Assembly: GCA_026026165.1 (NCBI GenBank) | Contig: JAPEUD010000070.1 | Location: 62,001-125,723 of the forward strand | Reading direction: 5' to 3' | DNA length: 63,723 nt | Source of the DNA: Sarea resinae | Taxonomy: Eukaryota | Shown here: positions 4,293-63,723 of the stretch, in pieces | Numbering within the stretch: position 1 is the first letter of the stretch | Layout of the letters: each line of letters starts with the position of its first letter | Program-made: the position numbers and the translations under genes | Notes under the pieces: model-generated | Databases searched by the model: none | Told to the model about the DNA's origin: nothing | What the model saw: only the letters and a program-made list of their open reading frames with translations

Positions 4293-4337
4293 CGATAGAC
4301 ACGATAGACAGGATAGACAGGATAGACAGTGATAGAC
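4293..4337. repeat. (GATAGACAG)-like 9-mer tandem repeat, 5 units
   Basis: gatagacac gatagacag gatagacag gatagacagt gatagac. Confidence 0.85.
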
Positions 4338-20679: not shown

Positions 20680-21960
<1,281 letters not shown>

Positions 21961-45257: not shown

Positions 45258-47867
45258 ATGGCAGAGGATGAGAGGGCCCAATGCTACACCGCTGCCGTGG
45301 AAGAGATCCGGGAGAGAGAGTATCCGATGCTCAAGGGTAATGGAATCCCACCTAACCAATGATTCATGCTAAAGCTGTATTCAGACACCGTCTATCTGGA
45401 TCATGCGGGGACAACGCCTTATGCCAAATCTCTGATGGAACGCTTCTCCTTCGAGATGACCACAAACCTATTCGGAAATCCACATTCAGCGTCGCCATCT
45501 TCCCAATTATCTACCCAGTCCATTGAAAACATTCGGCTGCGGGTTCTTCGTTTCTTCAATGCCGATCCCGACGACTTTGACGTGGTCTTCGTGGCCAATG
45601 CCACCGCTGGCATCAAACTGGTCACGGAAGGATTTCGGAATCAGAAGAATGGTTTTCGGTATTCTTATCACAGAGATGCTCACACGAGTCTGATCGGAGT
45701 TCGGGAGGAGGCCACTTCACATGTTTGTTTCGAATCGGATCAAGACGTCGAAAGATGGCTGTCTGATGAGGGACCGGAGGATACCGGTCAAACGGACGAT
45801 GTCGGGCTTTTCGCATTTCCGGCGCAATCAAACATGAACGGTCGCCGCCTTCCCCTCGAATGGTGTGGACGCCTGCGATCTTTTCAGGGTGTCAACAAAT
45901 CTATCTATTCACTACTCGACGCTGCTGCTCTGGTCTCCACATCGCCACTGGATCTCGGAAAGTCGGAGACAGCGCCCGACTTCACTGTTCTTAGTTTTTA
46001 CAAGATCTTCGGCTTCCCTGACCTTGGTGCTCTGATAGTACGAAAAGATTCCGGTCACATATTGCAGAAGAGGAAGTACTTTGGTGGCGGGACGGTGGAT
46101 ATGGTTCTGTGCTTGGAAGAGCAATGGCACGTGAAAAAGGAGGAGACATTACATGAGCAGCTCGAAGATGGAACTCTACCTATACACAGTATCATTGCCC
46201 TTGGTTGCGCAATGGATGTGCATCAACAACTATACACGTCAATGGATCGCATTTCTCGACATACGGGCCATCTTGCCGAGAAGCTATATCACGGGCTTAG
46301 CTCCCTTCGCCATGGCAAAGAGCAAGCCGTCTGTGTGATATACAAGGACCCGTTGTCAGACTATCTAGACCCGAAAACCCAGGGTCCCATTATTGCTTTC
46401 AACATAAGAAGTAGCCAGGGCGCCTGGGCTAGTAACACGGAGTTCGAAAAACTTGCAGCCGTCAAGAATATCCAGCTGCGGAGCGGTGGTCTTTGCAATC
46501 CGGGTGGGGTTTCCTCTGCTCTCGACCTGGCTCCCTGGGAGATGAAGCGCAATTTATCCGCCGGCCAACGATGTGGCAATGAGAATGATGTCATGTCCGG
46601 AAAGCCCACCGGCGTCATTCGCGTCGCCCTTGGTGCCATGAGCAGCATGCGCGATGTCGAAGCGTTCGTCGGTTTCGTTCGAGAATTTTTTGTTGAGAGG
46701 AAAATCGCAATAGCCCGTACTCCACGAATCAGCGCATCAAAGGCTGACGGCTTCCGAGTCGAAAGCTTGATGGTATATCCTATCAAGAGTTGCGCTGGAT
46801 TCAGGATACCCATGGATTGCCAATGGGAAGTACGGAATGAAGGTCTGGCCTGGGACAGAGAATGGTGTCTCGTCCACCAAGGTACTGGCGTTGCTCTCAG
46901 TCAAAAGAAATATCCGAAAATGGCTCTCATCCGTCCCAGCATCGATCTAGAATCTGGCGTTCTGCGAGTACAGCTCCACCCACGAATACAAAAAAGGTCG
47001 CTGTCGTTTCAGCAGACGGAGATGACGGTTCCATTATCCGCAGACCCTACATACTTCGAAAAGACTGGTGGCCTTCCAGCAAAAGTATGCGGAGATCTCA
47101 TTTCTGCACACAAGTACACAATGCCCCATATATCCGAATTCTTCACAGCCGCTCTCGGTGTACCTTGTACGCTTGTCCGATTCCCTGCGGCATCCTCCTC
47201 TGGAGCGTCGACTCGGCACGCAAAGGCCCATCTACGCAATCATCAGCTCGATGCCGTCCAGCGCCAGTCCGCAGGTGTTTCTTCCTCGATAAGCGAAGAC
47301 GGCAACACTGTGGGACCTTTACTTCTCTCGAATGAGAGCCCGATCCTAACAATCTCGACATCCAGCCTCAATCGCCTAAACGAGCAGATCAAAAGCCGTG
47401 GCGGCAAAGCAGCAAGTGCGGAAGTGTTCCGAGCCAACATCGTCGTTGCTGAGGCCCACGACCCGGGCCTCGATCTCCACCGCTACCTGGGAACCCTGAC
47501 GTCCCCACTCTCCGTCCGTCCACGTTGCGAACGGCCCTATATCGAAGACCGATGGCGCTACCTCCACATCGGTACGCAGTCCTATCAATGTCTAGGCCCG
47601 TGCCGTCGGTGTCAGATGGTCTGCGTCGATCAAGAGACGGCGGAGAAGAACGAGGAACCTTTTGTCACGCTGGCAAAGACGCGCCGGTTCAACGGCAGGG
47701 TCTTTTTCGGACAGCATACCCGTCTTCTGATGAGGCCTGCCGCCGTCGCTTGTTCTTCGGTCGACGCAGATCCGTTCTTGCCCAAGACGCCGACCATCGC
47801 TATTGGTGACCCCGTCAGGCCTATCATCGGAGAGACGGATGAATTGTTCGCTGATTTGAAAAGCTGA
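45258..47867 (+). CDS. hxB: Molybdenum cofactor sulfurase; join(45258..45336,45385..47867)
   Basis: EIREREYPML|DTVYLDHAG, GNPHS, SFYKIFGFPDLG (PLP Lys), LRSGGLCNPG, MOSC domain YPIKSC..WDREW, FRANIV, GPCRRCQM. Confidence 0.95.
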
Positions 47868-48183
47868 AGTCAAGGCGTAGCGTTGTTTTGCCCTTCATTA
47901 CTTAAGCCTACCTACCTCACGTTACCTTACCTGTGCGACGTATATATCACAATGGATGCTATCAACACTTTCGCTTCTTATAAACAACTAGAATCGCCGA
48001 TTGATATCCTTTCTAGTTAAGGAAGTAGAGAGGTAGGGAAACATGTAAGTATAAATGTCATGTTACAGTCATATACCAACCATCGTCTTCATTTCGGTCA
48101 AGGATTTTTGTTCAGCCTATATCGGCTGCCGGCCGTCAAGGTGATCATGGAAGGGGGTTAGTGAAGTCAACAAAGACGGCTGA

Positions 48184-48311
48184 GATAAGCCTAACCCTCA
48201 CCAAAATTGGCAGTCGCTCTTGGTGGTCTAAGATTAGTCATCTAGTATCCCCCCCCTGCTCTGTTTACCCCACCACCCCGACATGCGCGCGCTCGACGAT
48301 AAGGAGATAAG
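48184..48311 (+). promoter_or_regulatory. Cluster of GATAAG sites (AreA/NIT2-type) upstream of the deaminase
   Basis: GATAAG at 48184, 48298 and 48306, followed by TATA-like CATAAATA. Confidence 0.5.
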
Positions 48312-48388
48312 GACATAAATATACTCAGTCATTCATGTTCACTAGACAGACGTAACCAAAGTGGCGGCAATCCCGCAGCTCTTGCACG

Positions 48389-49585
48389 ATGGGCAAAGTC
48401 AAGAACAACATCGATCCCGAAGAACTCGCTCGAGCCAGTCGGCTGATGAAAACACCCAACGAGTTCATCCAGAACCTGCCGAAAGTCGAACTGCACTTGC
48501 ACATTGAGGGCACCTTGTCGCCCGCGCTGCGCTGGCGATTAGCCCAGCGGAACCACCTCCAGCTGAAGCACAAGTCGCGCGTTTACGAGACCGAGGAGCA
48601 GCTGGCGAGCAGCTACAACGTCATCTACAACCACCGCGGCAAACTGCGCGGCGACGACGAGCGGCCGACTTTTCTGGACGCTTACTATGGCGGCATGGAC
48701 GTCTTGAGGGAGCCCGAGGACTTTTACGATCTCGGCATGGCCTATCTCGAGCGGTGCCGAGACATGAGTGTGCGCTACACTGAGCCGTTCTTCGACCCGC
48801 AGGCTCATACCCGCAGAGGCGTGTCGCTGGAGGCCGTGATGGACGGACTGAAGCGCGCGCAGACGGACGGCAAAGGCAAACTAGGCGTAAGTATACCGTC
48901 GTCGAATGGTTTTCCGTCGCGGAATAGCTAACATCATTATGTCCAGGTCAGCTCACAATGGACCATGTGTTTCCTCCGCGACATGTCCCCCGAATCGGCC
49001 ATGGAACACTACACAGCCGCCCTAGCCTACCGGCCCTTTGTCCACGCCATCGGCCTCGACTCGGACGAATACGACCGCCCACCCTCGCTCTTCGAGGACG
49101 TCTACCAGCGTGCCCGAGCCGATGGCTTCCGCCTGACATGCCACTGCGACGTGGCGCAAAAAGACACGCACGACCACATCCGGCAAGTGGCGTCCACAGT
49201 GGCAGGCACGGGCGCGGATCGTATCGATCACGGCCTCAACGCGGCCGACGATCCGGATCTCGTGGCGCTGGTCCAGGAAAGGGACTTGGGCATGACGATA
49301 TGCCCGTGGGCTTATTACCGCCACGAGCCTGCGGATGAGGTCTTCCCTAAGGTCCGGATGCTCTTCGACGCCGGCGTCAAGGTCACGATCAACAGCGATG
49401 ATCCGGCGTACATGGGCGATAATTGGGTGGTGGAGAATCTGGCGCTGGTGGAAAAGATGTGCGGTTTTTCGCGTGCCGAACTGTGTCAACTGGAGAGAAA
49501 TGCCATTGAGATATCATGGGCCCCAGAGCTACTTAAAGCGAGACTTTTGGACGAGCTAGAGAATTTTCAGAGAGTGTTTAAGTAA
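48389..49585 (+). CDS. Adenine/adenosine deaminase family amidohydrolase with atypical HCD motif; join(48389..48886,48947..49585)
   Basis: LPKVELHLHIEGTL, FFDPQAHTRRG, MCFLRD, LTCHCDV (in place of HAGE), RIDHG, TINSDDPAY. Confidence 0.9.
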
Positions 49586-49677
49586 TGTGATTCTTTGCAG
49601 GGCACATTGCGTTCACGTATACAGCAAGAGAGTGGCAGATGTATTTCCGGTCTACTGAAGGGCACTAATCCCGCTAG

Positions 49678-51438
49678 CTATTGTAAAAAGGAAGGCCGAG
49701 AACTGTCCTTGGCTAGAACCTCGACATCTCCGCCTGCGAAAACTTTGCCCTCCTTTTTTGCTTCGATTCTCAGCCTCCTCACCCTGCGTATATCTCTCTC
49801 GGACCTCCAGGTCAGCCACCAGGTCCACAAGTTCGCCAGAAGTCCCGCGCCAATGGCCCCTGTGCAGATGCCAAATGAGACTTTATACCCATTATGAGCA
49901 TAGCGCTGCCGGAAGAGCTGCGGGCCTACTACGCCACCGACCTGCCCAACGCAAGACTGGAACGCCAGCGTAAAGGCCGTGCCCGTGGTGCCCACCAGCG
50001 TCGCGGAGCGCCACGCCCAGAACGGGATGAAATAGACCGAGTAGAACATGGTGCCAAGGATACAGGCGGCGTAGATGGCGCCGGGGCTGGTGACGGAGAG
50101 GAAGAGCGCAAAGGAGACGACCATGCCGACCATGATGATCATTATGAGGACCGGCCGCGTTACATATGCGCGGTTGAGGATCCAGCCCGAGAGAATAATC
50201 GCGAGCACGGACGCCACCGCAGGCGGTAAGTTAAGGAGCTGGTTGCGCGGAAGGCCGGCGAAGCCGAGGTCCGTCGTTATGGTTGGCAGATACCAGCTGA
50301 GGCCGTAGCCACCGAGATTGACGAGCGTCTGCGAGAGCATGAATGCATATGTTCTCGGATCCAATAGGGAGGCGATGATCTCATCTTTGGAGAAGGCGGC
50401 GTCTTTGGTGAGTGGCGCATTGGAGGTGAGTCGTTGCTCGATAAACTCTTGTTCTCTAGGCGTAAGCCATTTGTTGGAGCGGGCGGATTTGGGATAGTCG
50501 GGGAGGACGAAAAAGACGAGGATGGAGAACAGGATCGTCATCAATCCCTCAAGCAGATATACCCTGTATAGATCGATAAGCGTTTGCAGACGTTTTCAGG
50601 ACGAGGAGGGCACTAACCATCGCCATGCACTCAAGCCCTGAAGGCCATTCATGTATGAGATGCCGTATGCAAGCAGGGAACCGATGACACCCGAGAAGTT
50701 TTGGAACCCAAACATCCACATGATCGGCTTTTCCATTTCGTCGCTTCGATACCAGCTGCAGAGCTGAGCTGTGATACCTGGAAACATTCCGGCTTCCATC
50801 AAGCCGAGCAGGAAACGGACCGCGTAGAGTGAGTGCCGATTCTGGACGGCCGCATGACAGGCCAGTACGACACCCCATGAGAACACAATCCGCGACTGCC
50901 AGATTCGTGGAGTCATGCGCTTTAGGAGCAGATTGCTTGGGACCTCGAAGACAATGTAACTAATCTGTCGTCATTGAAGAAAGTAAGCCATTGCTGCCCA
51001 GCTCGGTCCGATGCATCTATGCCTTTCGCTGGCACAGATCACGAAGAAAGGCCTTGATAGTAGAACTTACAAAATATATAGACTGCACCCAATTGTACTG
51101 ATTGGCGGTCATTTTGAGCTCAACCAGGATATTTCGCGGCTGCTTGACCTGCAAGACTTTGATGTTGGCGGCATTAGTATAGTCGATCTACGGAGAAGAC
51201 AGATTAGCTAAAACGCGCCTGCAGAAGCAGCATTCGTACTCACTGTTTTGATCAGGTACATAAGCCCGATCAGCACGAGAAATCGATAGTCGACTTTTCG
51301 CATGATATGTTTCTCCTCTTCGGGCGAGAAGCTCGACAGAAATGCCGCTCGGTCTTCATTGCTGCTGTCGTCGTATTTGCGAACAGATACGCCGTCAGAT
51401 ATTTCCGTCGCCTCTAGATCAGGCTCTGATTTCGCCAT
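49678..51438 (-). CDS. MFS transporter, Dal5/allantoate permease (anion:cation symporter) family, multi-exon
   Basis: EEKHIMRKVDYRF, FEVPSNLLLK, RFLLGLMEAGMFPG, SWYRSDE, GLSAWRW, LPDYP..WLTPRE. Confidence 0.92.
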
Positions 51439-52161
51439 TTTGTAGTTGTTGCTGAAATATGACAGAGGCACAGCTCGACTTTTAAAGGGCCCGACATGCA
51501 GGACCTAAGCCGCAATATTGCTTTTTCTAAAAGATGGTAAAAAGCCTCCGGCATGTGTCATTGAATGAAAGTGGCTGCAAGTGATAGGCATTGCGATAAA
51601 CGTAGCTCATAGTCGGAGTCATCATTAGACTCAAGACGGTCTGCTCAGTCCCCACATTTGCCACGAGCCTGCCACGGGCCTGCCACGAGCTTGACTGCAT
51701 AAACCCTTGAGAATAAGAGAGTGAAATTGCTCACCATCGAAGCTAAGTGTGATGCCATCCCGCTATCAATAGTTGGCCGAAGCAGGAGCTTACTAACGCA
51801 GGTTCTCCTTGCCGTCCGAACCCCACGACAATCGTGTTGCAATCCCCGCTTGGTTGAAGTCGCAATATGTATGATAAGAACTCCAGGGTTATCATCCCGG
51901 CATAGAGCTTGATCGCCGGATAGATTTACGGCTTTGAGAAGCCAAGCGACACCAATTGGTGGTGGTGGTGATGCTGGTGATACCAAGCAGATATGACGTG
52001 CTCTCGCGCCATCAATTGCGGAGAAGAAGACCGCATATCAGCGAACCTGTAAACAGCACGCAGGAAGGAAAATCTTGCGAACGAGCATGTAAATAGATGA
52101 GAAAAGCCCAGTAGCAAGCTGCACTCTCGATTGATATCAAAGTCCAATTGAATAGCCCAAT

Positions 52162-54011
52162 ATGAGTGAGAACGCCAACCAAACAGGAGCGACCGAAAAC
52201 GGATCGGCGCCACCGAAGCAAATCCTCCTCAATGCCTTTGACATGTCAACGATTGGGCACCTTAGTGTTGGGTTGGTTTTCATAGAATATCATAAGAAAG
52301 AGAAACTGTCTCACTAATAACTTTCTACCTGAACAGGCAATGGAAGGTAGGATCCATTGTGCATGATGTTGCGATCCGATGGAGAGACAAAGCTCATGGT
52401 GTTGTGTTTCGGTTGCGACTTTAGGATCCCAACGACAAGTCCACGACCAAGCGACGACTTGACTACTGGATCAACCTCGCGAAGCTGCTGGAACGGGGCA
52501 ACATCAACGCCTTGTTCCTCGCCGATACCTATGGCGGATATGACACGTATGAAGGCAGTCTAGATAATTGCATTCGACGAGCTGCACAATGGCCGGTGAC
52601 GGATCCTACCATTGTGAGCCATCCATGATCTGTCTGTCAGAAAGCGCCACGATTGACATGAACAGCCGATTTCCGCCATGGCCGCTGTGACCAAGAATCT
52701 CGCATTTGGTATCACGGCGTCGACCTCTTTCGAACCGCCATTTCTGCTAGCCAAGCGCTTCTCCACTCTGGACCATCTGACGAACGGTCGCTTGGGATGG
52801 AACATTGTGACGTCGTGGAAGAAAGCTGCGTTCAAGGCGATCGGGATCGATACTCCGATTGAGCACGACCAGAGATATGAACAGGCCGACGAATATCTCA
52901 AAGTGCTTTACAAGTATGTTTACCATCTCGAGATCGTTGTTTGTGCATAGTCTCTGATAGAAGGACAGACTCTGGGAGGGATCGTGGGCAGATGACACAA
53001 TCGAGGCGAACGCAGCCGAAGACATCTACTTCAACCCAGACAAGATCCGTCAGATCAACCACCACGGAAAGTATTTCGACCTCGAGACTCGACACATTGT
53101 CGATCCGTCTCCCCAGCGGACTCCATTTCTGTTTCAAGCCGGCACATCTCCGTGAGTTGCTCAGCCCGATACCCTACGCACATCATTTTTGGACACATTT
53201 CTCTCGAAAAAGCCGCCTGTTCCATCAAGAATGCAGCTAACAGGCCCTCTTCTTAACAAGAGCCGGATCCTCATTCGGCGCTAAGCATGCAGAGGCTATC
53301 TTTGTAACCTCACACAGCCCTTCAGTCCTACGTCCCAAGATCCAAAAGATTCGCTCCCTCGCCCAGTCCCTTGGGCGCGACCCGTCTTCCCTGAAGTTCT
53401 TTGCGACATTTACCCCAATTCTAGCACCCACGGATGCTGAGGCGCACGAGAAACACGAGGCTCTCAAGAAGACCGCCTCCATCACCGGCGGACTCGTGCT
53501 CTTTAGCGGCTGGACCGGGATCGACATCTCGAAGATCCCACTTGACGAGGAGCTGACGGCCAATCACTCGCAGGAGGCGAACAAAATACGGTCGTCACTC
53601 GAAAGCTTCACGACGACCAGCGACGAGGTGCCCGTGTGGACGCCACGCACCGTGGCGGAGCGAGCGGCAATTGGCGGCCTAGGGCCTGTGGGGGTCGGGT
53701 CGCCGGCGACGATCGCTGACGAGCTACAGCGGTGGATCCGCGAGGCAGACGTCGATGGCTTTAATTTGGGATACGTCACGACTCCGGGCACCTTTGAGGA
53801 TGTCGTGGACTTGTTGGTGCCGGAGCTGAGACGCAGGGGTGTGTATCCGGCTGCGCCCGATGAGGGGGCAGAACCAGTCACTGCGAGAGAGAAGGTATAC
53901 GGGAAGGGTCAGAATAGACTGAGAGATGACCATTGGGGAAGCACATTCAAGTACGACGTCTATCAGGAGGAGCCGCCGTATAAGAAACAGGATAGTGAGG
54001 TTCACAGCTAG
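52162..54011 (+). CDS. Luciferase-like FMNH2-dependent monooxygenase, NtaA/DszA/SoxA family, multi-exon
   Basis: ILLNAFDM..GHLS.GQWK, LAKLLERG..ALFLAD, RFSTLDHLTNGRLGWNIVTS, PSPQRTPFLFQAG, DVDGFN, LVPELRRRG. Confidence 0.92.
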
Positions 54012-54542
54012 CTTATGCAATCTATCAACAGTCTTTTTTGTCTAGTCTGGCTCTCTTGCGTCAGGAAATAATACCAAGTTGAATATATCCCTACAGATAC
54101 AAGCAACAACCAATTTAATTTCGCAAGATACTGGCACTATTTACCTGCTTCAACCAATTATTATGCTACAAATAAGATATTTAAATACATCCCACTTATC
54201 AATTTGAACTACACGCACCTTCTGATGTCGTGAATAGAAGAGTCTGTAGGCAAGCGCTGAGAGACGGCGAGGTACGGTGTCGCATAAAAATACCTAACCG
54301 ATGACAAGATAGCGCTTGACGGTAGTGCTTATGCTCGTTGCCGTGCCCACCTAATCACAGACTGAGATTCAGGTCAATAAAGTGGAGCTATTTATTTTGT
54401 TTCAACGACGAAGTGAGCTCTGCCGCAGGTAGAGAGAGTAACGTGGCTGTCAATTATCGATCATGATTTATACTTCCCACTATCATCGCGTACGCTCTTA
54501 TAAGGGTATTTCGTTTCTGGAACAGTGTTCAAATGAGCAGAG

Positions 54543-55448
54543 ATGTCCCCTACCTTTGCAATCGTGATTTGCCACGGATCGTACCATACACCTCAGCCAT
54601 ACCAGCCTTTCCTCGATGCTCTAAAAGACGCTGGAATCGAGGCGTACTGCCCACAGCTCCCTTCATCTGATCCGTCAAAAATGAACCTAGGAGATGACGC
54701 CTCCAAGCCCGACTACGACAGGGATGCGCCACCGAGTGGATATCCCCAACCCGCGGACGATGCGAAAGTCATTACGGAAATCCTGGGAAGGCTCATCATC
54801 ACAGAGGGCAAGAGCGTCATTTTGATAGGACATTCATCAGGGGGCTTCACGGCGACAGCATCTGCTATACCTGAGCTCCAAGCGAAGAACCGAATGACGG
54901 CAGGCGCTTCTGGAGGTATAATAGGTGTCTTCTACGTCTGTGGGTTCGTGGTTCCGGTCGGCGAGTCTGTTAATTCCTTCTTTCAGCCGAAAGACGGTAG
55001 TCCGCCTGTGGTTCCGCCTGTGGTTCCGCCTTACTGCGAATTCCATGTCAGTATTACCGAAGTCACGAACGAGCAGAGCTGACATGGTTGTGCCCAGAAA
55101 CACGGTATGGCCGGTCTGGCTTCGACTAAGGAGGGTGCGAAGTACTTCTTCAATGGCTTGGACCAAAGTCAAGCTGAACATTACGAATCTATGTTGACTG
55201 CTTCACCGGTGTTCCACACGATCTTGGAAAATGATGTTTATGCTGCTCTACCTTGTCTTTACTTGGTGACAGAAAACGACCTGGCGTTGCCGGCGACGTA
55301 TCAAGAGGGAATGGTGGCGCTCCAGAGCCAGAGGCCTGAAGTAGACATTGGTGTTGTGAGATGCGCAAGTGGACATTCGCCTCATTTAGCTTGGACCGAA
55401 GGCCTTGTTGCTGAGGTCCAGAAATTCGGGGAAACGCTACTTGGATGA
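54543..55448 (+). CDS. Alpha/beta hydrolase (AB_hydrolase_6-like); join(54543..55046,55098..55448)
   Basis: VICHGSYH, GHSSGG nucleophile elbow, YLVTEND, SGHSP. Confidence 0.9.
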
Positions 55449-55485
55449 CCTCATAGTATCAGCCCATACAGATCACCCTGCTGTC

Positions 55486-56578
55486 TTATTTATGTCGGTC
55501 GGCGAATTTGGCGAGCTCATCGGCTAGCTCTGGGAAGTCCTCTTGGTGATATACGCAACGTCGAGGTCTGCTTGTTGGAATCTTTCGTTCATAATTGTTA
55601 CGATCGATATGGAGAGACATGGCGACGTACGGATCGATGCGGCGAGCATACTTTTCAGCATGAAATCGCTGTCGTTCAGGATTCTCGTTACTATGTGAAG
55701 CTAGCTCTGATAATGCAAAGTTGGCAAAGTCCTGGATCTGAGCATCTGAAAGCTCGTATATTTGGTAAAATCCAACTGGATGGACAAAGACATTTTCGCA
55801 CTAGAGAAAGCCGTCAATAAAGAGCTAATTTGAGGGTTTGGAGATCAAGAATAATACCTCTATTCCAGACTCGCCACGATCAAATAGCATAACTCCTCCA
55901 AACAAACGGTATTCTGCCCAATATCCCACTATGTCCGCGATACCGTTTGGATATTGATCCCAATCCATATACTCAGGGTGATAAAGCTCTACTGGTTTGG
56001 GAGGAATAGGCATGAGCGGGGGAAGGTCCGGATGCGTTGGGGGCTGAGCTGACGGACTCGTCGGATCAAGTTTATGTAAACCGCCATCGGCATTGATGAA
56101 AAGCGATGTAGCCATATTGTGGCACGCAATAGACACCAATTCCATCAAGCGTAGAATAAATTGTCTCGACCCAATAGTGGTGTTTTGGTATGCTTCAGCC
56201 AGCTAATGTATCAAGGTCTTAGTATAGCTTTCTCGAAAGCAGGACATTGTACTGGCAGACCTTGGCATCAAACTCGATCATCCCAAGCCTCAAGTTTGCT
56301 CGAAAGGCTTCTACAACTTGTCGTGCGTCTCGGCTCGACTCCACATTCTGTTCGAAATCCGGGCGAGTATGTGTGTAGTAATCGCGATACACATCGCGGG
56401 TTGGTACACCGTCAACGACCTGGGCAAAGGTCTGAAAAGCTAGATCTGTCGACAAGATATTGGAGAGAGCTTTCTCTAGGGCGACCAGATGCTCAGGCGC
56501 CAAGTCGTTGATACAGATTTGAACAGTTCCGCTTGGCGATGCATGACCCTGGAGCTCGAAGTGGGCGCTCGCTATCAT
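55486..56578 (-). CDS. Fungal hypothetical protein, about 3 exons
   Basis: ORFs 56219..56578 and 55825..56148 (YPNGIADIVGYWAEYRLFGGVMLFDRGESG) plus a third open frame CENVFVHP..RRIDP..ERKIP..ADRHK* ending at 55486. Confidence 0.7.
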
Positions 56579-56784
56579 GGTAAGACTAGAAGACTAGGAT
56601 ACCGAGGACAATCGCAGAAGACTCGTGCAGGAAGGAGGTTGCGCGTTGGGGTTAAATGAGCACTATTTGTATAGTGTAAAATTCGCTCGCTTGCTTACTA
56701 TCTTACTATCTAAGGTGTCTATCAATCTATCTAGAACTAAGAGGCATAGATTGTGCTTCGACCTTGCTTGCTATGGGGTCAGAC

Positions 56785-57510
56785 TCCGGCGATGAAGTAC
56801 ATTTTGTGGGACGTTAATCAATGGTAGTGCTCGTATCCGCATGTGCATACACATTTCCTTTCAATATGTTGCTAATGGATAACGCAGGGTATCTTACGAT
56901 GACGCCGACACGTACAGGCAGAAGAATGAGTTCGCCAATCAACTTTGCCTCGGCGGCACCTTGGCGTGGGTTCTTGATCTCGATGATCCTACCACATACA
57001 TGACCTCGATGAACGCCCAAAGCGGCCGTATGATGACTGCAAGTGACACAGAATGCGTCTCCAACATATTACCGCAAGCAAATATCAGGCCACTTTCTAT
57101 AAAATGGACCTCAAGGCAAATCAATTCTATGGGACACAGTGTTCCCCGCATCCCTCTTGTCAATTTGGGTGGTATGCTATCACATATGGTCGCGGCAAGT
57201 TAGCTAGATAAACAAACCTAGAAGTCCAAATAATGAACAACTGACACACTTAGATTCTCAATAGGGGTCATATTTCAGGGGAATGTCATGGCGGCCCTCG
57301 AAGTCCATACGGAAGCTTTGCCTCCCGGACATTGTATCATTTGCTACGTGTCGATGGTACGTAGGTCAGACGAGCATCCGCAATGGCGGCTCCCTGAACC
57401 TGAGGTGTCCCAAGGGCGACTCGCTCGTTTCCTTGAATTCTCGTCCTGAGCGAGACCGCAATGAGTATGATGGCGATCGTTCTTCACTCTTCTGCTGTGA
57501 TGGTATGACA
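56785..57510 (+). pseudogene. Relic of a GH18 subgroup C (killer-toxin-alpha-like) chitinase
   Basis: AMKYILWDVNQW|intron|VSYDDADTYRQKNEFANQLCLGGTLAWVLDLDD is the end of a GH18 barrel; downstream CPKG..LFCCD fragment; no DxDxE core seen upstream. Confidence 0.7.
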
Positions 57511-58248
57511 ATAGCGCTGGGCGAGACTTGCGCTAAGTAAAGCTGAGAAGAGGCTCAGCGCCGGCGGTGTTCGTTTCCTTTGATCATCTATCATCTCCGG
57601 AGATAACTCGAATCCGCGAGATTAGGGGGAGTGCAGCTTTTGGGCCGATCCACCAAATACGAGCAGCTTCGGAATTTATGATAGACTCCCCAGCAACGAT
57701 CAGAAATCACCCCCGGATTGCCGAGATGCGCACTTCGATCCTCAGCCCACATAGTAAGATATAGAGGAGAACGAGAACAAGGAGAACCCGGGCCTGAACC
57801 GAGCTCGACCTCAATCTGGACGTCATACTCGACCAGCAAACACCTTCCTTACCTACTACAAATACCACACCACCCTAACAGCACCTACCAAGCCTCCTCT
57901 CGACCTTCAAGCCATAGCATTGCGTGACGTCCATCCACCCCTATCCTTCAGACCATCAAGAAGAGCCGACATCAGCACCAGACCTAGAGCAGCAGGATCC
58001 GCACGCCTCCATTGCGCCGCCCGACAGATCCGGCACTATGCCCACACCCACAGCGACAGTACCAATCTAGCCCCATACATACGTCCTGTCCCGAACACCG
58101 ACAACAACGCCGGAACGGACACCGAGACCGCTCACGAAACATCTTCCCTTTCGCATCTAGTCCTGTCAATCAGCTAAGATATAAATCCAGCGAGATAGTA
58201 CAAGAGACTAGATTGATAATAGTTTCTATACTATAGGTTTCTAAAATA

Positions 58249-59706
58249 CTAGTTCTTAATTGGACGCCCTTTAACATAGACTTTAGCTATGTTTCTGTCA
58301 TCTCCGCTCATAATGAATTTCTCAAACACATTAGCAATAGAGTCGAAATCTTCAACGAAGGTTATAACACCCTCGTACTCCCCACTAGTCTTGATTTCCA
58401 GCGCATCGAAGTCCTTGCCAACGGCGAAGGTTCCTATCTTGCTATCTAATCCACAGAGTTTTGCTCCACCTAGTGTCGCAAGGTAAAACGTCTCACATAT
58501 TGACAAAGGCTCATCCGCGCCATCTGTGGACAGCTGTCTCGCTTTAGACACGATAAACGCCTGTCTCATCGCATCAAGAATCGAGGAAGAATAACCACCG
58601 CCACTGTCAGTTCCTAGACCGACATTCATATCCCTCCGAAGATACTCGCGGATGGGCGCGACTCCGAAGTCGCCGCCTGTAGTATTAGAGATCGGACAAT
58701 GTGATACGCCGCAACCGAGATCTTGAAGCCGCCCCATGTCGTAATCATCCATAAATATGCAATGAGCCAGAATTGAGCGGTCATTGAGCAATCCGAAGTG
58801 TTCATAAAGATCAGATTCATTTCCAAACTCTGGAAATAGAGACTTGGTGACTTCCATTTCTTGAATGGTTTCATTGAAATGTGTCTGAATCGGCAGATCT
58901 GGATTCTTCGCGGCAATTCTTCCGAGCCCAGACAGTACCTCCCGGTCGCAAGCAATAGCGAAACGTGGCGTCAAAATCGGTGTGATGAGCTTGAATTCCG
59001 GATCGATTTTTCGAGCATAGGCAATGAAGTCCTCCGTGACACGGAGAGATTCCTCCGCGCTGCTGTCTTTGTAAAATCCGGGCGAGCTTTGGTTCATGTT
59101 GCATTTGCCAACTAATGCTCGCTGACCCTTCTCCAAGCACGTGTCGGCCAGTATCTTCGTAGCTTCGCCGTGTAGAGAGCCGTAGTAGGCTGCTGTAGTG
59201 ATGCCTTGTTTGATCAAACCGTCCACGCATGACGCATACGTCTTCCGTGCATACTCGGGATCAGCGAATCTTGCTTCGTGAGGGAACGTGATCTTGTTGA
59301 GCCACTCCATGATATTTTTGCCCCTTCCCATCCCCCGCTGCGTCCATTGAGGAGCGTGGTTGTGTGTATCGACAAATCCCGGTATCAAAAACTCTCCATT
59401 GTTGAGCATCCGGAAATGCTGTACTTTGTGTCGCGAGAGAAGCTCATCAACTATTTCCTCGACCACATCCTTTTGGAGCAAGACAATCGTGCCATCTGTG
59501 CCGACAATCAGAAGGCTGTTTTCAATGATCGCGATCTCAGAAGACGAGACAGAATGTATGATAGTGCCATAGACGGCGAGAGGTAGGTTTGGACGAGTGC
59601 TGTCCTTTCGGACAATGCCAGATGGTTGAAGCGACGTCATAACGGGACGAGACTTGCTTAGTAGATATTTGAGGGGAGAGAAAGAATCCGATATATATCG
59701 CAACAT
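58249..59706 (-). CDS. Guanine deaminase family amidohydrolase, intronless (start may be the Met at 59640)
   Basis: PGFVDTHNHAPQ, TTAAYY, GQRALVGKCNM, TPRFA, IQTHFNE, HCPISN, GLGTDSGGG, GDDRNIAKVYV. Confidence 0.92.
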   Translation of the reverse strand: MLRYISDSFSPLKYLLSKSRPVMTSLQPSGIVRKDSTRPNLPLAVYGTIIHSVSSSEIAIIENSLLIVGTDGTIVLLQKDVVEEIVDELLSRHKVQHFRMLNNGEFLIPGFVDTHNHAPQWTQRGMGRGKNIMEWLNKITFPHEARFADPEYARKTYASCVDGLIKQGITTAAYYGSLHGEATKILADTCLEKGQRALVGKCNMNQSSPGFYKDSSAEESLRVTEDFIAYARKIDPEFKLITPILTPRFAIACDREVLSGLGRIAAKNPDLPIQTHFNETIQEMEVTKSLFPEFGNESDLYEHFGLLNDRSILAHCIFMDDYDMGRLQDLGCGVSHCPISNTTGGDFGVAPIREYLRRDMNVGLGTDSGGGYSSSILDAMRQAFIVSKARQLSTDGADEPLSICETFYLATLGGAKLCGLDSKIGTFAVGKDFDALEIKTSGEYEGVITFVEDFDSIANVFEKFIMSGDDRNIAKVYVKGRPIKN

Positions 59707-59939
59707 CTAGCGAGGATGTTATCGTGTTATGTCACATGTACAGCGGTCTCAGGCATAAGTTTCGTGAGCTCGTTACTTTATAAGCTGACTAGGGTACGCA
59801 GGATCTGTCGCTCGAGCCTGATAGATCGCCTTATACCTTTCTATCTCTATAGACAACTAGAGTTGAACTTGAACTCTAAAAGTATGTACTCTTTTTAACA
59901 ATTATAATTGGTAGAAATAATTAAGTGAGAGTAGAACTC

Positions 59940-62900
59940 TAGTAGTAGAACTTTAGTCAGTTAATACTGTTAAAATACTCTCTTTCTTTAGGTGTATTAT
60001 ATCTTCTAATCTTTTCTATTATAATTCTATAAAGCACAATTAATTATCTTGTGTTATAGCTATAATATCACTAAATAAAGTGCTTAAAATTTATTAGAGT
60101 AACTTAGAGCTACTTTAGATAAGTACTAAAGCTAAGATTTAAAGGTAGAATAGGTAAGAGTAAAGAGTTATTAGACTGCCTCCTAGGCTTCTAGCTATAG
60201 TAGAGTAGGTAAGAATAGCATAATTAAATAGGCTAGTGCACTGCAGCGTGCTAGTGTCATTCTAGCGATGTGAAACTAATACTATAGATATAGATATTGC
60301 TAGTAGGCACTGACTTTATAATTGCACTAAACACTAGCCCTAATAGCTAGCGCCCCTATTAATCTATATAACTAATAACCCTGCTTAGCTTACCTAAACG
60401 TTGCTGAACTACACTAGGTAGTTACTCTACACTGCGCTAAACTCTATACAGCACCTCTATTAGTAGTAGCCCTTATAATTACCTTCTCTCCTAGGACCTA
60501 GTCCTCTAGGTCCTTTGTTTACAATGTATAACATTATAGTGTTAAGTCTTTGTCTTGCTAGCGCCTTTATAGCGTTGCTATTCGCTGCAACCAGTGAATT
60601 TATATAGATAATAAAGAGAGTTCTTTATCCTATTTGCTTAGTTTGCTAAACGCTGCGCTAGAGTAGCAGCAGTGAATAGATAGAGTAAATGCTTTAAACT
60701 ATCTGTATTAGGCATTCTCTCTATTGCTTAGAGGTCGCTTAGCTATAGGTGTGTAGGTATAAAACGTAGGTGATCTAGTGCGCGCGCGCACAATTAAACT
60801 TTTTGCACCACGTTTTTAGGTACATTCTATATGCTTATCTGCCTATTATAAACGTTCCTAATCGCGCCTCTATTGTTCTACTATATATGCACAAGCCCTA
60901 TCTGAATCTAAAGGAGCCTCTTAAGCTCTATTAGGAGCTCTGTCTGCGCTATGCTAAGTGCCTTAGTGCTATCCTAGATATTGTATACAGCTGTCCTAGC
61001 TCCTTAGCAAAGTGTACACGCTGCGCCTAGCTCTATAAGAAGTGCAATAAAGTAAGCAATGCTCTTAATATAGCTCTAGGCAGGCTCTAACTAGGCTCTG
61101 TATAGGTGCTATATAAGTTCTATAAGCAGTTTAATTAGCTAGCTAAAGCAGCAGATATAGTAGCGGCTTTTGCAGATAATAACCTAGCTAAAGAGCCTGT
61201 ATTAAGTGCTCTTTAAGCTAAACAGCGGCGTTTTACAAGGAGCGTTAAAGCCTATATTAATACCACTAACTGCTATCCTTTAGACAACGCTCTATATATT
61301 GCTGTCGCTACTAAGCGCCTAGCTAACAGTGTTAAGAGACTGAATAACATTCTTTGCTATGCTATAAGCTAGCCTAGCTTATTACTAGCTTAGGGCTGCG
61401 CTAACTAAAGCTTATAGTTCGACCTGCCTTTAATTACACGCGCTAGTAAGAGTAAGGATAAGGATAACAACAATATAACTACACCTCTAGAGAGGTCTAG
61501 CAATTAGGCTAGTTAGGGCTAGGCAAGGCAAAGCAGTTAGTAATAGGATAGTAGTTCTTTCTGTTTCCTTTGTTTACTAGATAGCTTTAGGTTCGCGCTA
61601 GGACAGCGCTAGGGGTTTAATTTCACTTTCTTTTTTATAACTTTATCTCCTCTTATAACTGTAGCATTGTAGCTCTATAGCCTAATAGCCTTCTACAAAG
61701 ACTGTACACTATTAGCATACAATTGCATTGCAGGCCTACCTCTACATTAGCTTGCTAAAACCACCTAAAAACCTTTGTAGGTAAAAGAGGTAGAAAGAGT
61801 TCTAATAGCAGCTCTTTACTAGTGCTGCAACAGCGCGTCCTTTCTAGGACAGCTGTAAGGTCTTCTTCTTACAATTACTTGCAGCTTTAGGCTATACTTC
61901 TATAGCCTTCCTTGTAGGCGTTTTGTTACTAGCATCTCTAGGCTAGCTAGAGAGTCTTTATAGAGTAGTAGATTCTTTCTTAGGTAGCCTCTTAGCCTCT
62001 TAGCTGTCGCCTCTACAGCGCTATCACTAAGTAGTTGCTTCTTTAGTTAACTACAAGGCTTAGTTAACAGCACACTAGCATCCTATTCCTTGTTCGCTAG
62101 GCTCTTATGCTAGTTAGAGAGTAAGTGCTGTTTATAATCCTATACTAGGTCTATAGCGTTTGCTAGGTGCTCTACTAGCTCCTAGCTAGTATTATCTACT
62201 AGAGCTCTTTTCTACTTAACTAGATATTGTCGCTCTCTTTTAAGTACTCTGCAGCCTAGGATTTTTTTAACAATCTACTTAACCTAGCTATTAACTAGCT
62301 TAAAGTGCTAGTCTAAGGTATTGCTGTCGCTGTAGTAGCGCTTAAGTAGAGACATATAAAATATAGAATAGATAGATCTATAAGCCTTAGAGAGCTATAA
62401 CTAGTAGGCTTGCTTGCCTACAGAGTTAAGTACTATAAATAGGCCTATATAGCAGTGTTCTAACTTCTTACTTAGGTGTATAGTGCTAAGGTTGCACGCT
62501 GACAGCATAACTCTATTACCTCTTTTGTATTGTATTAGCTTATGTTTCCTATTGTACTACTTAGCTTAGTACTACTATACCTTAGTAAGATCCTCTTCTA
62601 GTCTTTATCTTACCTCTTAGAGGATATTAAGGCGCTTGTTTGCTGCTAGCACCTCTCTCTCTATAGCATTATCTACGATATTAAGTTGCAGATCTAGGTT
62701 GTAGCTATATAGAGCATAGAAGAGTGATATTCCTATAGACAAATATATGCTATTATTATATACATACTTAGCTATAGGTAACAGCAGAGCCTAGTTGTCC
62801 TAGCAGCTGCTTATATAGCACTATAAGTAGTGTTCTAACGTCTAGTTTTGCCTCTTAGTCTAGCTATCTGTCTGTAGGTAGAAGGCAGTGCTAAGCTAGT

Positions 62901-63723
62901 TCTTAATTCGCATTTAATAGCATATAGCTAACTAAAATTTGCTTGCGAATACACTGCCTCTATCTAATATAATGCGCTTTAGATTGCTATACGCTGTTAT
63001 TACAACGTCAATAAATATGTCTGCAAGTATAGCGGCATTTAGATTTGTCTAGTATAGAGTATATTTTGCTATCTTTGTATAGCGGTTAACTACTACTATT
63101 ATTATGTTATAGGCCTTGCAATCTCTTATGTTGCTTAGTAGCAGGCCTATAATAAAATCTATAGTGATTTCTTTAAACAGCTAGTAGGGTATAGGTAACG
63201 ACTATAGCTCGCTGTATAGGCGATGCCTAGGCACCTAGACCCTTTAACATATATTGCACTTATTAATATATTCTTTAATATCCTTAGCTAAATTAGTCTA
63301 CTAGTATTTACGCTAGATCACCTCTGTCGTTCTCTTAGCGCTAAAGTAGCTACTAAACAGGTTATTATAGTTTATTCTTATAATTTCTAACCTAATAGCT
63401 GTATCACACAGTATATATACTTTGCCTTCTAGGCGCAGCAGGCCTATAGAGTCTATTTTCCACTTTTCTTAGCCTGTAACCTCCTTAGTAGGAATGCTTC
63501 TAATCTTTTCCTTAGCGAAATAATCTTCCTACTAAGTCCTAAGGATAATGTTAAGCAGCTAGCTTGTTAGCAGCTTATACGCTCTTTTATTAGCAGCTGC
63601 CTTATGCACTGCTTGTCTTATATAGAGGTGTTTAAACTTATCTCCTAATGCTAGCTTATTAGCATTGTTATTTAGGCTAGGCCTAGGTGTCACTCTAGTG
63701 CCTCTCTATCGCTCTTTGGGGTT
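59940..63723 (-). mobile_element. RIP-inactivated Ty3/Gypsy (chromovirus) LTR retrotransposon, 3' portion, truncated by the window edge
   Basis: Strong TpA excess and CpA/TpG loss; no ORFs in the track. Minus-strand relics: integrase zinc-finger region (..YINKCNIC*RV, ~63240-63370), ITIDFIIGL (~63150), LSTAFYLQTDS*TKRQN*TLEHYL (~62820-62896), chromodomain QYLVK*KR..S*ELVEHL (~62160-62280). Confidence 0.92.
60848..61507 (+). pseudogene. RIP-mutated spliced antisense ORF within the retroelement's 3' region, Cys-rich (Zn-cluster-like)
   Basis: LCLRYAKCLS..VYSCPSSLAKCTRCA*LYKKCNK; intron 61052..61105 (gtaagc..ctaac..tag); helical exon 2; intron-like 61364..61417 (ataagc..ctaac..tag); in-frame stops are TAG/TAA, explainable by RIP. 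Confidence 0.6.

Follow-up and report, generated by a model that had tools for sequence, protein, structure and literature searches.

A conserved permease–monooxygenase gene pair amid purine-related genes in Sarea resinae: one pathway or several modules?

Do six neighbouring genes of Sarea resinae, three of them purine-related, serve a single catabolic pathway, or are they small units that happen to lie together? The question comes from a preliminary description of a 63,723-nucleotide stretch of DNA (the window, meaning that whole stretch), which read six genes within 14.5 kb as a route for the import, oxidative dealkylation, hydrolysis and deamination of a modified purine. Pfam and TIGRFAM matches and gene models recover all six, intact and in the orientations described, and their identities are correct at the family level. 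The features of the interval are:

45366–47867, forward strand: hxB-type molybdenum cofactor sulfurase; a single 834-aa open reading frame with a NifS-like domain, then MOSC_N and MOSC
48389–49585, forward strand: purine deaminase of the ADA/ADE superfamily, 'HCD' subfamily; 378 aa; exons 48389–48892 and 48953–49585
49678–51438, reverse strand: Dal5/ACS-family MFS permease; 514 aa; exons 51438–51244, 51187–51071, 50964–50617 and 50562–49678
51439–52161, no strand: divergent promoter common to permease and monooxygenase
52162–54011, forward strand: NtaA/DmoA-family FMNH2-dependent (luciferase-like) monooxygenase; 496 aa; six exons, 52162–52271, 52337–52346, 52425–52613, 52666–52913, 52969–53151 and 53261–54011
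54543–55448, forward strand: alpha/beta hydrolase; 284 aa; exons 54543–55046 and 55098–55448; GHSSG nucleophile elbow
55489–56593, reverse strand: uncharacterised gene of three open frames, between hydrolase and guanine deaminase
58249–59706, reverse strand: canonical guanine deaminase; intron-less single open reading frame of 485 aa

Two Sarea resinae MAG proteins, P0121 and the annotated P0241, are 100% identical to the encoded deaminase and permease, respectively, and map onto the window. Contigs from a wood-decay metatranscriptome cover five of the six genes: the 3' end of hxB (47427–48068; contig 1, run X1), the deaminase (49255–49549), the permease (49633–50502), the guanine deaminase (58208–58417) and the monooxygenase, whose intron at 53152–53260 (GT..AG) is removed in the RNA. 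Permease and monooxygenase are transcribed divergently from start codons 722 bp apart. Deaminase and permease converge on stop codons separated by 92 bp, and thus have no promoter in common.

The permease has MFS_1 matches, and its nearest NCBIfam model is TIGR00893 (family 2.A.1.14), at 189.7 bits under a cut-off of 395. TIGR03860 matches two monooxygenase exons (5.6e-36 and 6.3e-51). The monooxygenase model is identical at 365 of 496 residues to its Meristemomyces frigidus orthologue P0039, which scores 473 bits against TIGR03860 (cut-off 279.7).

The two genes recur together in other fungi. In Meristemomyces frigidus the orthologues carry consecutive locus tags on one 51051-bp contig, LTR08_002512 (P0336) and LTR08_002513 (P0039). 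Both orthologues are also assigned to contigs of equal size in Phlyctema vagabunda (4085240), Cadophora sp. MPI-SDFR-AT-0126 (2025982), Tricladium varicosporioides (1110327) and Sphaerosporella brunnea (239458). Among the 12 species recognised in both match lists, the pair shares a contig in five, lies on different contigs in five and is unassignable in two; the different-contig calls use the best 120 matches in families that are far larger, and represent each 90% cluster by its longest contig, so that paralogues or other strains can mislead. In Echria and Stylonectria, the annotated model fuses the monooxygenase orthologue to another Dal5-like MFS protein, 27% identical to the window's permease. 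Judged from sequence, the Dal5/ACS-type permease and NtaA/DmoA-type monooxygenase are a conserved two-gene unit in Pezizomycotina. The deaminase does not accompany this unit in any evident way: the pair recurs in fungi without evidence of an adjoining deaminase, and in Phlyctema the deaminase (P0127) maps to a contig of 4058677 bp and not to that of the pair. A deaminase relative (P0182) and a permease relative (P0263) do share one 1372607-bp contig in Capronia coronata.

What might this pair do? The closest solved relative of the monooxygenase is the dimethyl-sulfide monooxygenase DmoA (6ak1, 1.1e-44), with which it shares the luciferase-like TIM-barrel family of TIGR03860. Further solved relatives are NtaA (3sdo, 2e-13), EmoA (5dqp, 1.4e-08), DszA and riboflavin lyase (5w48), and the preliminary description's general statements, that NtaA/DszA enzymes cleave C-N or C-S bonds and that HxB activates xanthine dehydrogenase, fit such relatives. 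The Sarea gene differs from DmoA in being fungal and intron-bearing, in its pairing with an anion-type permease and in having no flavin reductase next to it; the DmoA substrate, DMS, requires no carrier. The favoured reading is uptake of a small organic anion by the permease, after which the monooxygenase would cleave a C-S bond, or less likely a C-N bond, using O2 and FMNH2, the latter supplied by an unlinked NAD(P)H:FMN reductase.

Published sulfur-limitation responses are consistent with this proposal at the level of families. In the available text of the reports, PF00296 monooxygenases and Dal5-family transporters of Candida parapsilosis are induced via Met4 when sulfur is limiting (PMC11502921); in Neurospora CYS-3 governs mox-7 and a gene for a 'DBT desulfurization enzyme' (PMC8550094); and Soa1 and AstA are Dal5-family carriers of sulfonate or sulfate (PMC5303821). 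The same two protein families co-occur, although the accessible portions of these three papers describe no physical pairing of the genes, and the shared Sarea promoter has no clear CYS-3/MetR site. The exact site ATGRYRYCAT is not found in that promoter, and its single 10/11 match to the CYS-3 DAP-seq motif (52003–52013) is of a kind that occurs at chance level (7 in the window against 7.25 expected). The promoter also contains three tandem 11-mers, YTGCCACGRGC, at 51658–51690. Because, according to the available part of the review PMC5857272, this monooxygenase group still lacks a characterised fungal member, the sulfur role is proposed at the family level. By analogy with this literature, the pair would most likely scavenge an organic anion, probably an organosulfur compound.

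Nitrogen or carbon scavenging by the pair, perhaps joined by the hydrolase, would be a different outcome, with C-N cleavage of an aminocarboxylate, as by NtaA and EmoA, or of a Rut-like heterocycle in place of sulfur release. NtaA, EmoA and riboflavin lyase are indeed among the solved relatives, and the RutA family gives a weaker match (8.8e-13) to one monooxygenase exon. Dal5-family carriers import nitrogenous anions such as allantoate. However, DmoA is far closer than NtaA or EmoA, and fungal PF00296 genes are tied to sulfur limitation in the available text of PMC11502921 and PMC8550094. GATA sites (HGATAR) are two to three times denser in the promoters than on average across the window, but the enrichment is of equal extent in each of the five promoters analysed and so does not discriminate. 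We regard this C-N alternative as improbable.

The deaminase had been described as adenine deaminase-like. Its superfamily and its link to purines stand, but it is not of the canonical type. A_deaminase matches both exons (1.7e-19 and 3.6e-33), and the protein shares fold and length with the type-2 adenine deaminases Pa0148 (3ou8; E 1.7e-61) and Arthrobacter 3rys (7.8e-57). It retains the HxH motif together with the beta-5 His, the RIDHG His and the SDDP Asp, but lacks the catalytic Glu of HAGE, H232-C233-D234 standing in that place as part of HCDV-x-Q. This HCD triplet is kept in all 23 fungal relatives and in 78 of 80 bacterial ones. Yeast Aah1 and Aspergillus nidulans NadA likewise count among the type-2 adenine deaminases. 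In the Atlas, the canonical fungal 'Adenine deaminase' (348 aa) falls in a cluster separate from the HCD type. In Paraglaciecola as many as four kinds of PF00962 protein occur per genome, and one genome has both canonical and HCD-type deaminases. The Sarea enzyme belongs, on these sequence features, to a distinct bacterial–fungal subfamily.

The purine link comes from the neighbours of the bacterial relatives: permeases for nucleobases or nucleosides, PNP, guanine deaminase, urate oxidase and allantoinase-like genes. Of the 18 bacterial loci that were scanned, 7 have nucleobase or nucleoside genes immediately adjacent. From family and bacterial neighbours, the HCD-type enzyme would convert a 6-substituted purine, either adenine or an N6-substituted adenine, to hypoxanthine. 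In the available text of PMC13296781, Patl2390, a cog1816 group 3 enzyme, hydrolyses N6-substituted adenines (cytokinin) and not adenine or adenosine, a specificity that would fit a paralogue coexisting with a true adenine deaminase. Patl2390 belongs to the same COG as the HCD type, and one HCD-type locus (L075/L087) comes from its genus; by analogy the HCD subfamily could be a Patl2390-like N6-substituted adenine deaminase.

If so, could the whole interval act on one compound? In the pathway as first described, the permease would import an N- or S-substituted purine, the monooxygenase would remove the substituent, the hydrolase and deaminases would finish the conversion, and the HxB-activated xanthine dehydrogenase would take the products. 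Every part is present and intact, a single RNA library has contigs over five of them, both C-N and C-S cleavage are known among solved relatives in the NtaA/DmoA family, and the HCD subfamily could resemble Patl2390. Such a hydrolytic N6-alkyladenine deaminase, however, would render oxidative dealkylation needless. Against the pathway stand also the conservation of the pair without the deaminase, the convergence of deaminase and permease, and the promoters, in which no shared motif, and no common UaY-type or CYS-3-type site, is found. Within 8 kb of the 80 bacterial deaminase genes, a luciferase-like monooxygenase (LLM) occurs in one locus, hxB or a Dal5-type permease in none. On the four longer fungal metagenome contigs with deaminase relatives (L002, L004, L005 and L006), tblastn finds none of the other five genes in 7–10 kb of flank; in L002 the relative has as neighbours a Zn2Cys6 factor and a permease of the NCS1 purine/cytosine type. 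Across the loci and contigs covered, the cluster as a whole is not co-located elsewhere, an outcome that the preliminary description had listed among its grounds for refutation; the permease–monooxygenase pair is. We consider the single pathway very improbable; the preliminary description is supported in its gene families, its general statements on the enzymes and the deaminase's purine connection.

The hydrolase matches Abhydrolase_6 (5.4e-14), its 51-nt in-frame intron (GT..CTGAC..AG) was read from sequence, and its only solved relative is weak (8hfw, E 0.006). An alpha/beta hydrolase lies directly upstream of the bacterial HCD deaminase within the purine locus L028, as the pathway might lead one to expect, but relatives of the window's own hydrolase occur in none of the 80 bacterial loci (tblastn, E 1e-4). 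The gene at 55489–56593 has a single family match, to Cap4_nuclease, which at 19.9 bits (E 9e-4) falls short of the cut-off of 26.2; the gene is outside every proposed pathway. Neither gene has an assignable link to the pair or to the purine genes.

The nicotinate hxn cluster of Aspergillus nidulans offers a further comparison: like the Sarea interval it has a divergent permease–enzyme couple, and HxB acts in trans on its MOCO hydroxylase, according to the available text of PMC8478523. The Sarea interval, in contrast, contains neither a transcription factor dedicated to a pathway nor a MOCO hydroxylase nor any other enzyme of the hxn type.

Taken in aggregate, the data lead us to favour, with even confidence, a mosaic of independent small modules over one pathway. 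Here hxB, the HCD-type deaminase and the guanine deaminase would be ordinary purine-catabolism genes that flank the pair by accident or are loosely kept close. We infer the substrates, the sulfur regulation and the lack of coupling between modules.

Among the purine genes, hxB matches Aminotran_5 (7.5e-25), MOSC_N (6.5e-19) and MOSC (1.5e-20), and may have an additional first exon upstream of 45366. The guanine deaminase reaches equivalog level against TIGR02967 (376.0 bits; cut-off 375.4), aligns over its full length with human GDA (2uz9, 9.3e-88) and yeast Gud1 (6oh9, 2.6e-78), and shows HxH, HxxE and the metal-binding Asp, so that metal and catalytic residues are present; its sole peculiarity is that it borders a RIP-like AT-rich region.

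Three purine-related genes within about seven genes would arise by chance at roughly 1e-3 genome-wide, a rough, post hoc estimate based on about 15 such genes in a total of about 9000 and not computed from the genome; at that improbability, full independence of the modules is not shown. The three may instead form a loose island that supplies and activates the xanthine dehydrogenase route, with the pair, the hydrolase and the 55489–56593 gene as passengers. Bacterial HCD-type genes lie among purine uptake and catabolism genes, with guanine-deaminase-like matches within 8 kb in 11 of 80 loci, 4 of them strong (E < 1e-39), and so the Sarea trio may be meaningfully close. Urate oxidase and allantoinase-like genes stand beside the HCD-type gene in L028 and L021, and MoeA with a MOSC-domain gene directly upstream in L059. 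Two 7/8 matches to the UaY site precede hxB (44849 and 45086); they are 2 of the window's 14 CGG-N6-CCG sites and fall in 766 bp, but no such site lies upstream of either deaminase. Neither hxB nor guanine deaminase is near the deaminase relatives on the four longer fungal contigs, and four unrelated genes and a pseudogene remnant interrupt the Sarea trio. Core purine-catabolic genes are, as stated in the preliminary description, largely dispersed in Aspergillus nidulans. We hold such an island to be unlikely, though the most likely of the alternatives, and retain the mosaic as the preferred reading.

Another feature of the span from hydrolase to guanine deaminase is a GH18 C-terminal remnant, a weak match at 56883–57203 (E 0.03); this remnant and the 55489–56593 gene are absent from the preliminary description. 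An Old Yellow Enzyme gene is 30 kb distant from the interval. The guanine deaminase borders an AT-rich tract free of open reading frames (59900–63723), also unremarked before, whose composition has a RIP-like signature (TpA/ApT 2.01; (CpA+TpG)/(ApC+GpT) 0.75; GC 0.37).

All six genes named in the preliminary description are present in the window, as judged from stop-to-stop frames and Pfam/NCBIfam scans: hxB, an ADA-family deaminase, an MFS permease of putative Dal5 type, an NtaA/DmoA-type monooxygenase, an alpha/beta hydrolase and a guanine deaminase. The observation made there is confirmed as a whole. Of its interpretation, the gene identities and the purine link of the deaminase stand, but the assignment of all six genes to a single modified-purine pathway does not. 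The reading preferred here, to which about an even chance is given, is that the interval is a mosaic: a conserved permease-monooxygenase couple flanked by ordinary purine genes.

The window is fungal DNA with introns. Gene models were obtained by mapping annotated proteins, reading the splice sites and choosing the frame-keeping GT..AG pairs that best fitted the orthologue; the deaminase (two exons), permease (four), monooxygenase (six) and hydrolase (two) are all intact. The deaminase and the permease are each 100% identical to an NCBI protein of a Sarea resinae metagenome-assembled genome (M1819_006329, handle P0121, and M1819_006330, handle P0241, respectively). These two genes lie tail to tail, 92 bp apart, and the permease and monooxygenase lie head to head with 722 bp between them. 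The hxB product is a single 834-aa frame with the domain order of a molybdenum cofactor sulfurase (HxB/ABA3/MOCOS), namely a NifS-like class-V aminotransferase, MOSC_N and MOSC (Pfam Aminotran_5, residues 10-434; MOSC_N, 464-552; MOSC, 654-795). Its translation contains SFYKIFG and GGLCNPGG, the presumed sites of the PLP-binding lysine and the persulfide cysteine. The guanine deaminase reaches equivalog level against TIGR02967 (376.0 bits, cut-off 375.4), matches human GDA at E 9.3e-88, and shows THNH (HxH), HFNE (HxxE) and GTDSGGG, the last with the metal-binding Asp. The alpha/beta hydrolase has no informative solved relative, the best being 8hfw at E 0.006.

The deaminase departs from the classical enzyme in a catalytic motif. 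It scores 262.8 bits against TIGR01430 (cut-off 216.55), and the solved structures nearest to it, both of bacterial type-2 adenine deaminases, are 3ou8 (1.7e-61) and 3rys (7.8e-57). Its HxH motif, beta-5 His and SDDP/NTDD Asp align to both structures; among the metal ligands, H36 and H38 are nearly invariant and H232, H261 and D317 invariant (alignment A1). In place of the HAGEEG of 3ou8 and 3rys, the window deaminase reads HCDVAQKD, and the HxxE catalytic glutamate is absent. This replacement is widely shared: all 23 of the aligned fungal relatives keep H232-C233-D234, and the HCD motif is kept across 48 full-length fungal matches. A scan of bacterial and archaeal genomes gave 80 loci at 40-47% identity, 78 with HCD and two with HAD. 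Among the 149 best 50%-identity representatives from a library of 1.84 billion proteins, HCD forms rank first (54, with about a dozen near variants and 61 HxGE). The ESM Atlas assigns the deaminase to a cluster of fungal 'Adenosine deaminase' (365 aa); the fungal 'Adenine deaminase' cluster (348 aa) is a separate one. In Paraglaciecola, as many as four kinds of PF00962 protein occur, and one genome carries the HCD type, a HAGE Pa0148-like type and an Add type; the presence of HCD and HAGE types in one genome suggests that the two are probably not redundant.

On this sequence evidence, the HCD type is a distinct bacterial-fungal ADA-like subfamily, probably uncharacterised. This large subfamily, which lacks the catalytic glutamate and occurs in purine loci, is one of two valuable by-products of the analysis, the other being the conserved permease-monooxygenase couple. 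A published enzyme offers a possible point of comparison. In PMC13296781, cog1816 'group 3' includes Patl2390, from Pseudoalteromonas atlantica T6c, which is described as hydrolysing cytokinins, N6-methyladenine and N6,N6-dimethyladenine, and not adenine or adenosine. Equating the HCD subfamily with this Patl2390-type group 3 is a lead and not a result. The substrates of the HCD type may be modified adenines, which would bear on cytokinin turnover and on the recycling of methylated nucleobases.

The bacterial neighbourhoods indicate where the subfamily belongs. Of the 80 loci, 18 were hand-picked for lower G+C and taxonomic spread, and Pfam was run on 90 of the 159 frames within about 4.5 kb, the nearest frames being kept. 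Nucleobase or nucleoside genes stand directly beside the HCD deaminase in seven of these 18 loci, and three further loci show looser links:

Neighbours of HCD-type deaminases in bacterial loci (directly adjacent nucleobase/nucleoside genes, first seven loci, six lines; looser links, last three lines)
L020: two NUP permeases and a second A_deaminase
L021: two Xan_ur_permease genes and an allantoinase-like deacetylase
L028 (Neiella marina), 4602-11168: purine-catabolism locus with Urate_ox_N, a 2OG oxygenase, DUF1330, two Cupin_5 and an allantoinase-like deacetylase
L035: an NCS1 permease and an amidohydrolase-type adenine deaminase
L037, L045: a Xan_ur_permease and a phosphoribosyltransferase
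L049: a purine nucleoside phosphorylase family gene
L047: PRPP synthetase
L059 (Alteromonadaceae bacterium), 4537-7731: MoeA, a MatE transporter and a small MOSC-domain protein directly upstream of the HCD deaminase
L064: MoaE and SAICAR synthetase

In the Neiella locus, an alpha/beta hydrolase lies directly upstream of the HCD deaminase, and a guanine deaminase match is found at 3370-4557. The MOSC-domain neighbour in L059 echoes the MOSC-bearing hxB beside the deaminase of the window. Taken together, these contexts place the HCD subfamily in purine metabolism. When all 80 loci were searched with the window proteins (tblastn, E 1e-4), guanine-deaminase-like frames were found in 11, four of them at E <1e-39, a luciferase-like monooxygenase in one (L050), and the hydrolase, permease and hxB in none. 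Nothing links the HCD subfamily to an NtaA-type monooxygenase.

The proximity of hxB, the HCD deaminase and the guanine deaminase may be meaningful. The probability of three purine genes lying so close by chance is about 1e-3, by a rough, post hoc estimate that was not computed on a genome. Because of this figure, and because the bacterial HCD deaminase co-occurs with guanine deaminase, a loose purine island made up of these three genes is retained as the main rival to the mosaic, albeit as a rather unlikely one.

Whether the six genes form one cluster was approached by three indirect routes: hit tables, metagenome contigs and promoter motifs. The hit tables for the monooxygenase, deaminase and permease each comprised the best 120 matches, with species, some locus tags and the longest contig per 90% cluster. 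Twelve species could be recognised in the lists of both partners, monooxygenase and permease, and in five of the 12 the couple is co-located, among the best 120 matches per list; of the six genes, co-location is conserved for this pair only. In Meristemomyces frigidus, the locus tags of the two orthologues follow one another (LTR08_002512, LTR08_002513; 51-kb contig), and in four species adjacency is read from equal contig sizes: Phlyctema (4085240), Cadophora sp. MPI-SDFR-AT-0126 (2025982), Tricladium (1110327) and Sphaerosporella (239458). The orthologues lie on differing contigs in Thozetella, Apodospora, Mytilinidion, Podospora aff. communis and Hypoxylon fragiforme, cases that weigh little because only the best 120 members of much larger families were listed and paralogues abound. 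In Aspergillus navahoensis and Exophiala dermatitidis, the matching clusters contain several members, so their contigs are not comparable. Two annotated fusions (Echria P0086 and Stylonectria P0119) join an orthologue of the monooxygenase to another Dal5-like MFS protein, 27% identical to the window permease, indicating that the juxtaposition of a monooxygenase with a member of this permease family exists in more than one form. The couple is conserved from Pezizomycetes to Dothideomycetes and Leotiomycetes.

The lists of the deaminase and the permease (best 120 matches each) have five species in common, and the two proteins share an equal-size contig (1372607) in Capronia coronata only; they are on differing contigs in Phlyctema, Lasiodiplodia, a Mollisiaceae species and Clonostachys. 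A metagenome scan with the second exon of the deaminase returned six fungal loci, four of them long enough to judge. On all four of these contigs (L002, with a relative at 60% identity, and L004, L005 and L006, at 50-52%), the other window proteins have no match (tblastn, E 1e-5), which, together with the single luciferase-like monooxygenase in 80 bacterial loci, argues against the six-gene cluster. Pfam was run on 78 of the 84 frames of at least 120 aa on these contigs, the six dropped frames overlapping other frames or the match itself. At L002:5899-11228, the HCD deaminase is flanked by a divergent NCS1 permease (purine/cytosine/uracil/thiamine/allantoin type) and a Zn2Cys6 factor, with a class-V aminotransferase 3.5 kb beyond; judged by its gene content, this is a possible small nucleobase-utilisation module. 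On the other three contigs, the neighbours comprise an SDR, DUF3425 and transcription factors. In a set of 360 related proteins, no gene model joins hxB, the hydrolase or the guanine deaminase to any other gene of the window.

The full modified-purine pathway of the preliminary description is therefore left as an improbable reading. If real, the six-gene cluster would be an uncommon case of clustered modified-purine catabolism in a eukaryote; that the evidence speaks against it spares the effort of knock-outs and LC-MS. A joint reading is likewise held to be quite doubtful. Here, the HCD enzyme would hydrolyse N6-substituted adenines or other 6-substituted purines within an island with guanine deaminase and HxB, and the permease, monooxygenase and hydrolase would import conjugates or dispose of side chains, with substrates such as cytokinins, methylated bases or plant- or resin-associated purine derivatives. 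If true, a eukaryotic locus for breaking down modified purines would be described here for the first time.

Under the preferred mosaic, the couple would have a role of its own. The permease matches MFS_1; its best NCBIfam match, TIGR00893 (2.A.1.14), is 189.7 bits, below the cut-off of 395, and the names on its orthologues are inconsistent (nicotinate, pantothenate, prlL). The exons of the monooxygenase score 124.3 and 173.5 bits against TIGR03860 (profile 77-159 and 218-415). The 496-aa model is 74% identical (365/496) to its Meristemomyces orthologue P0039, which reaches 473.1 bits (cut-off 279.7); the separate exons and this full-length score place the monooxygenase in TIGR03860. Its closest solved relative is dimethyl-sulfide monooxygenase (1.1e-44), followed in order by LadA, riboflavin lyase, DszA, YtnJ, HcbA1, NtaA and EmoA. 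A Rut-like reading of the monooxygenase was set low, the RutA match being far weaker than that to NtaA/DmoA. The earlier remark that no flavin reductase is visible holds, as the window yielded no NAD(P)H:FMN reductase partner. Monooxygenases of this family usually rely on a reductase encoded elsewhere and acting in trans. The only other flavoenzyme found lies 30 kb to the left of the monooxygenase and is not of a known free-flavin reductase type:

20680-21957 (+): Old Yellow Enzyme gene, Oxidored_FMN at 6.7e-51 and 7.6e-36 on two exons

The literature on fungal sulfur regulation provides parallels at the level of families. According to one review (PMC5857272), fungal FMNH2-dependent monooxygenases are conserved, with none characterised, and sulfur-related promoter motifs occur in yeasts. 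In PMC11502921, sulfur limitation is described as inducing four PF00296 monooxygenases and several Dal5-family transporters through Met4; CYS-3 controls mox-7 and NCU05888, a 'dibenzothiophene desulfurization enzyme' gene, in PMC8550094; and the sulfonate carrier Soa1 and AstA are placed in the Dal5 family in PMC5303821. The genes of these three reports resemble the window couple at family level. By analogy, the couple most likely serves organosulfur or another organic anion: the permease would import the anion, and the monooxygenase would then cleave a C-S (or C-N) bond oxygenolytically with FMNH2 from an unlinked reductase. The couple thus offers a concrete, testable way into the question of what fungal FMNH2-dependent luciferase-like monooxygenases do.

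Motif scans found no specific site common to the cluster promoters. The exact CYS-3/MetR site ATGRYRYCAT is absent from them and occurs three times in the window (1.11 expected). The Neurospora CYS-3 DAP-seq motif ATBRCGCCATC (PMC8550094), at one mismatch, has seven matches in the window where 7.25 are expected; one of the seven lies 150 bp upstream of the monooxygenase, at chance level and not as evidence. The exact UaY site TCGG-N6-CCGA occurs once in the window, outside the six-gene region. Among the promoters examined, only the region upstream of hxB has CGG-N6-CCG sites, two of the 14 in the window. A. nidulans hxB is under UaY control, as stated in PMC8478523. HxnR-type GHGGGG and GATA sites do not discriminate among the promoters, GATA being equally dense in all five. 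Two arrangements of sites were noted:

44849 and 45086: TCGG-N6-CCGC, upstream of hxB, each matching seven of eight UaY consensus positions, within 766 bp
51658-51690: three head-to-tail 11-mers YTGCCACGRGC in the divergent permease-monooxygenase promoter

With at most one mismatch, YTGCCACGRGC has six matches in the window against 2.63 expected, three of them at 51658-51690. The triple may be an array of transcription-factor sites.

Part of the window is present in one RNA library, consisting of wood-decay metatranscriptome contigs (0.12 of sampled words). Seven contigs align, mostly at 98-99% identity and at about 96% over the guanine deaminase, and span 3' parts of hxB, the deaminase, permease, monooxygenase and guanine deaminase. 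The hydrolase, an uncharacterised gene beside it and the 5' gene parts have no RNA contig, which is uninformative either way. One contig skips 53152-53260 (GT..AG), confirming this intron of the monooxygenase. As contigs, these sequences do not report transcript abundance and are silent on co-expression.

The surroundings of the six genes are mixed. To the left of hxB lie housekeeping-type genes (Pfam: SAM/PH, Erg26-like 3-beta-HSD, Thoc5, HlyIII, Coq10-like and Sod_Fe_C), from a scan of 91 of the 163 frames of at least 110 aa, without those already scanned for the six genes or many antisense frames that overlapped others. The six-gene interval is not framed by direct or inverted repeats. Further features lie between the hydrolase and the guanine deaminase (first two lines), to their left and to their right:

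55489-56593 (-): uncharacterised three-frame gene; its only family match is sub-threshold (Cap4_nuclease, E 9e-4)
56883-57203 (+): weak GH18 C-terminal remnant, E 0.03
28577-29662 (+): fuller GH18 frame, 3.3e-07, 27 kb left of the remnant
59900-63723: AT-rich stretch (GC 0.37) starting directly after the guanine deaminase, with no open frame of at least 60 aa

The GH18 remnant may be a decayed duplicate of the fuller frame. The AT-rich stretch has RIP-like dinucleotide indices (TpA/ApT 2.01; (CpA+TpG)/(ApC+GpT) 0.75) and is probably a degraded repeat.
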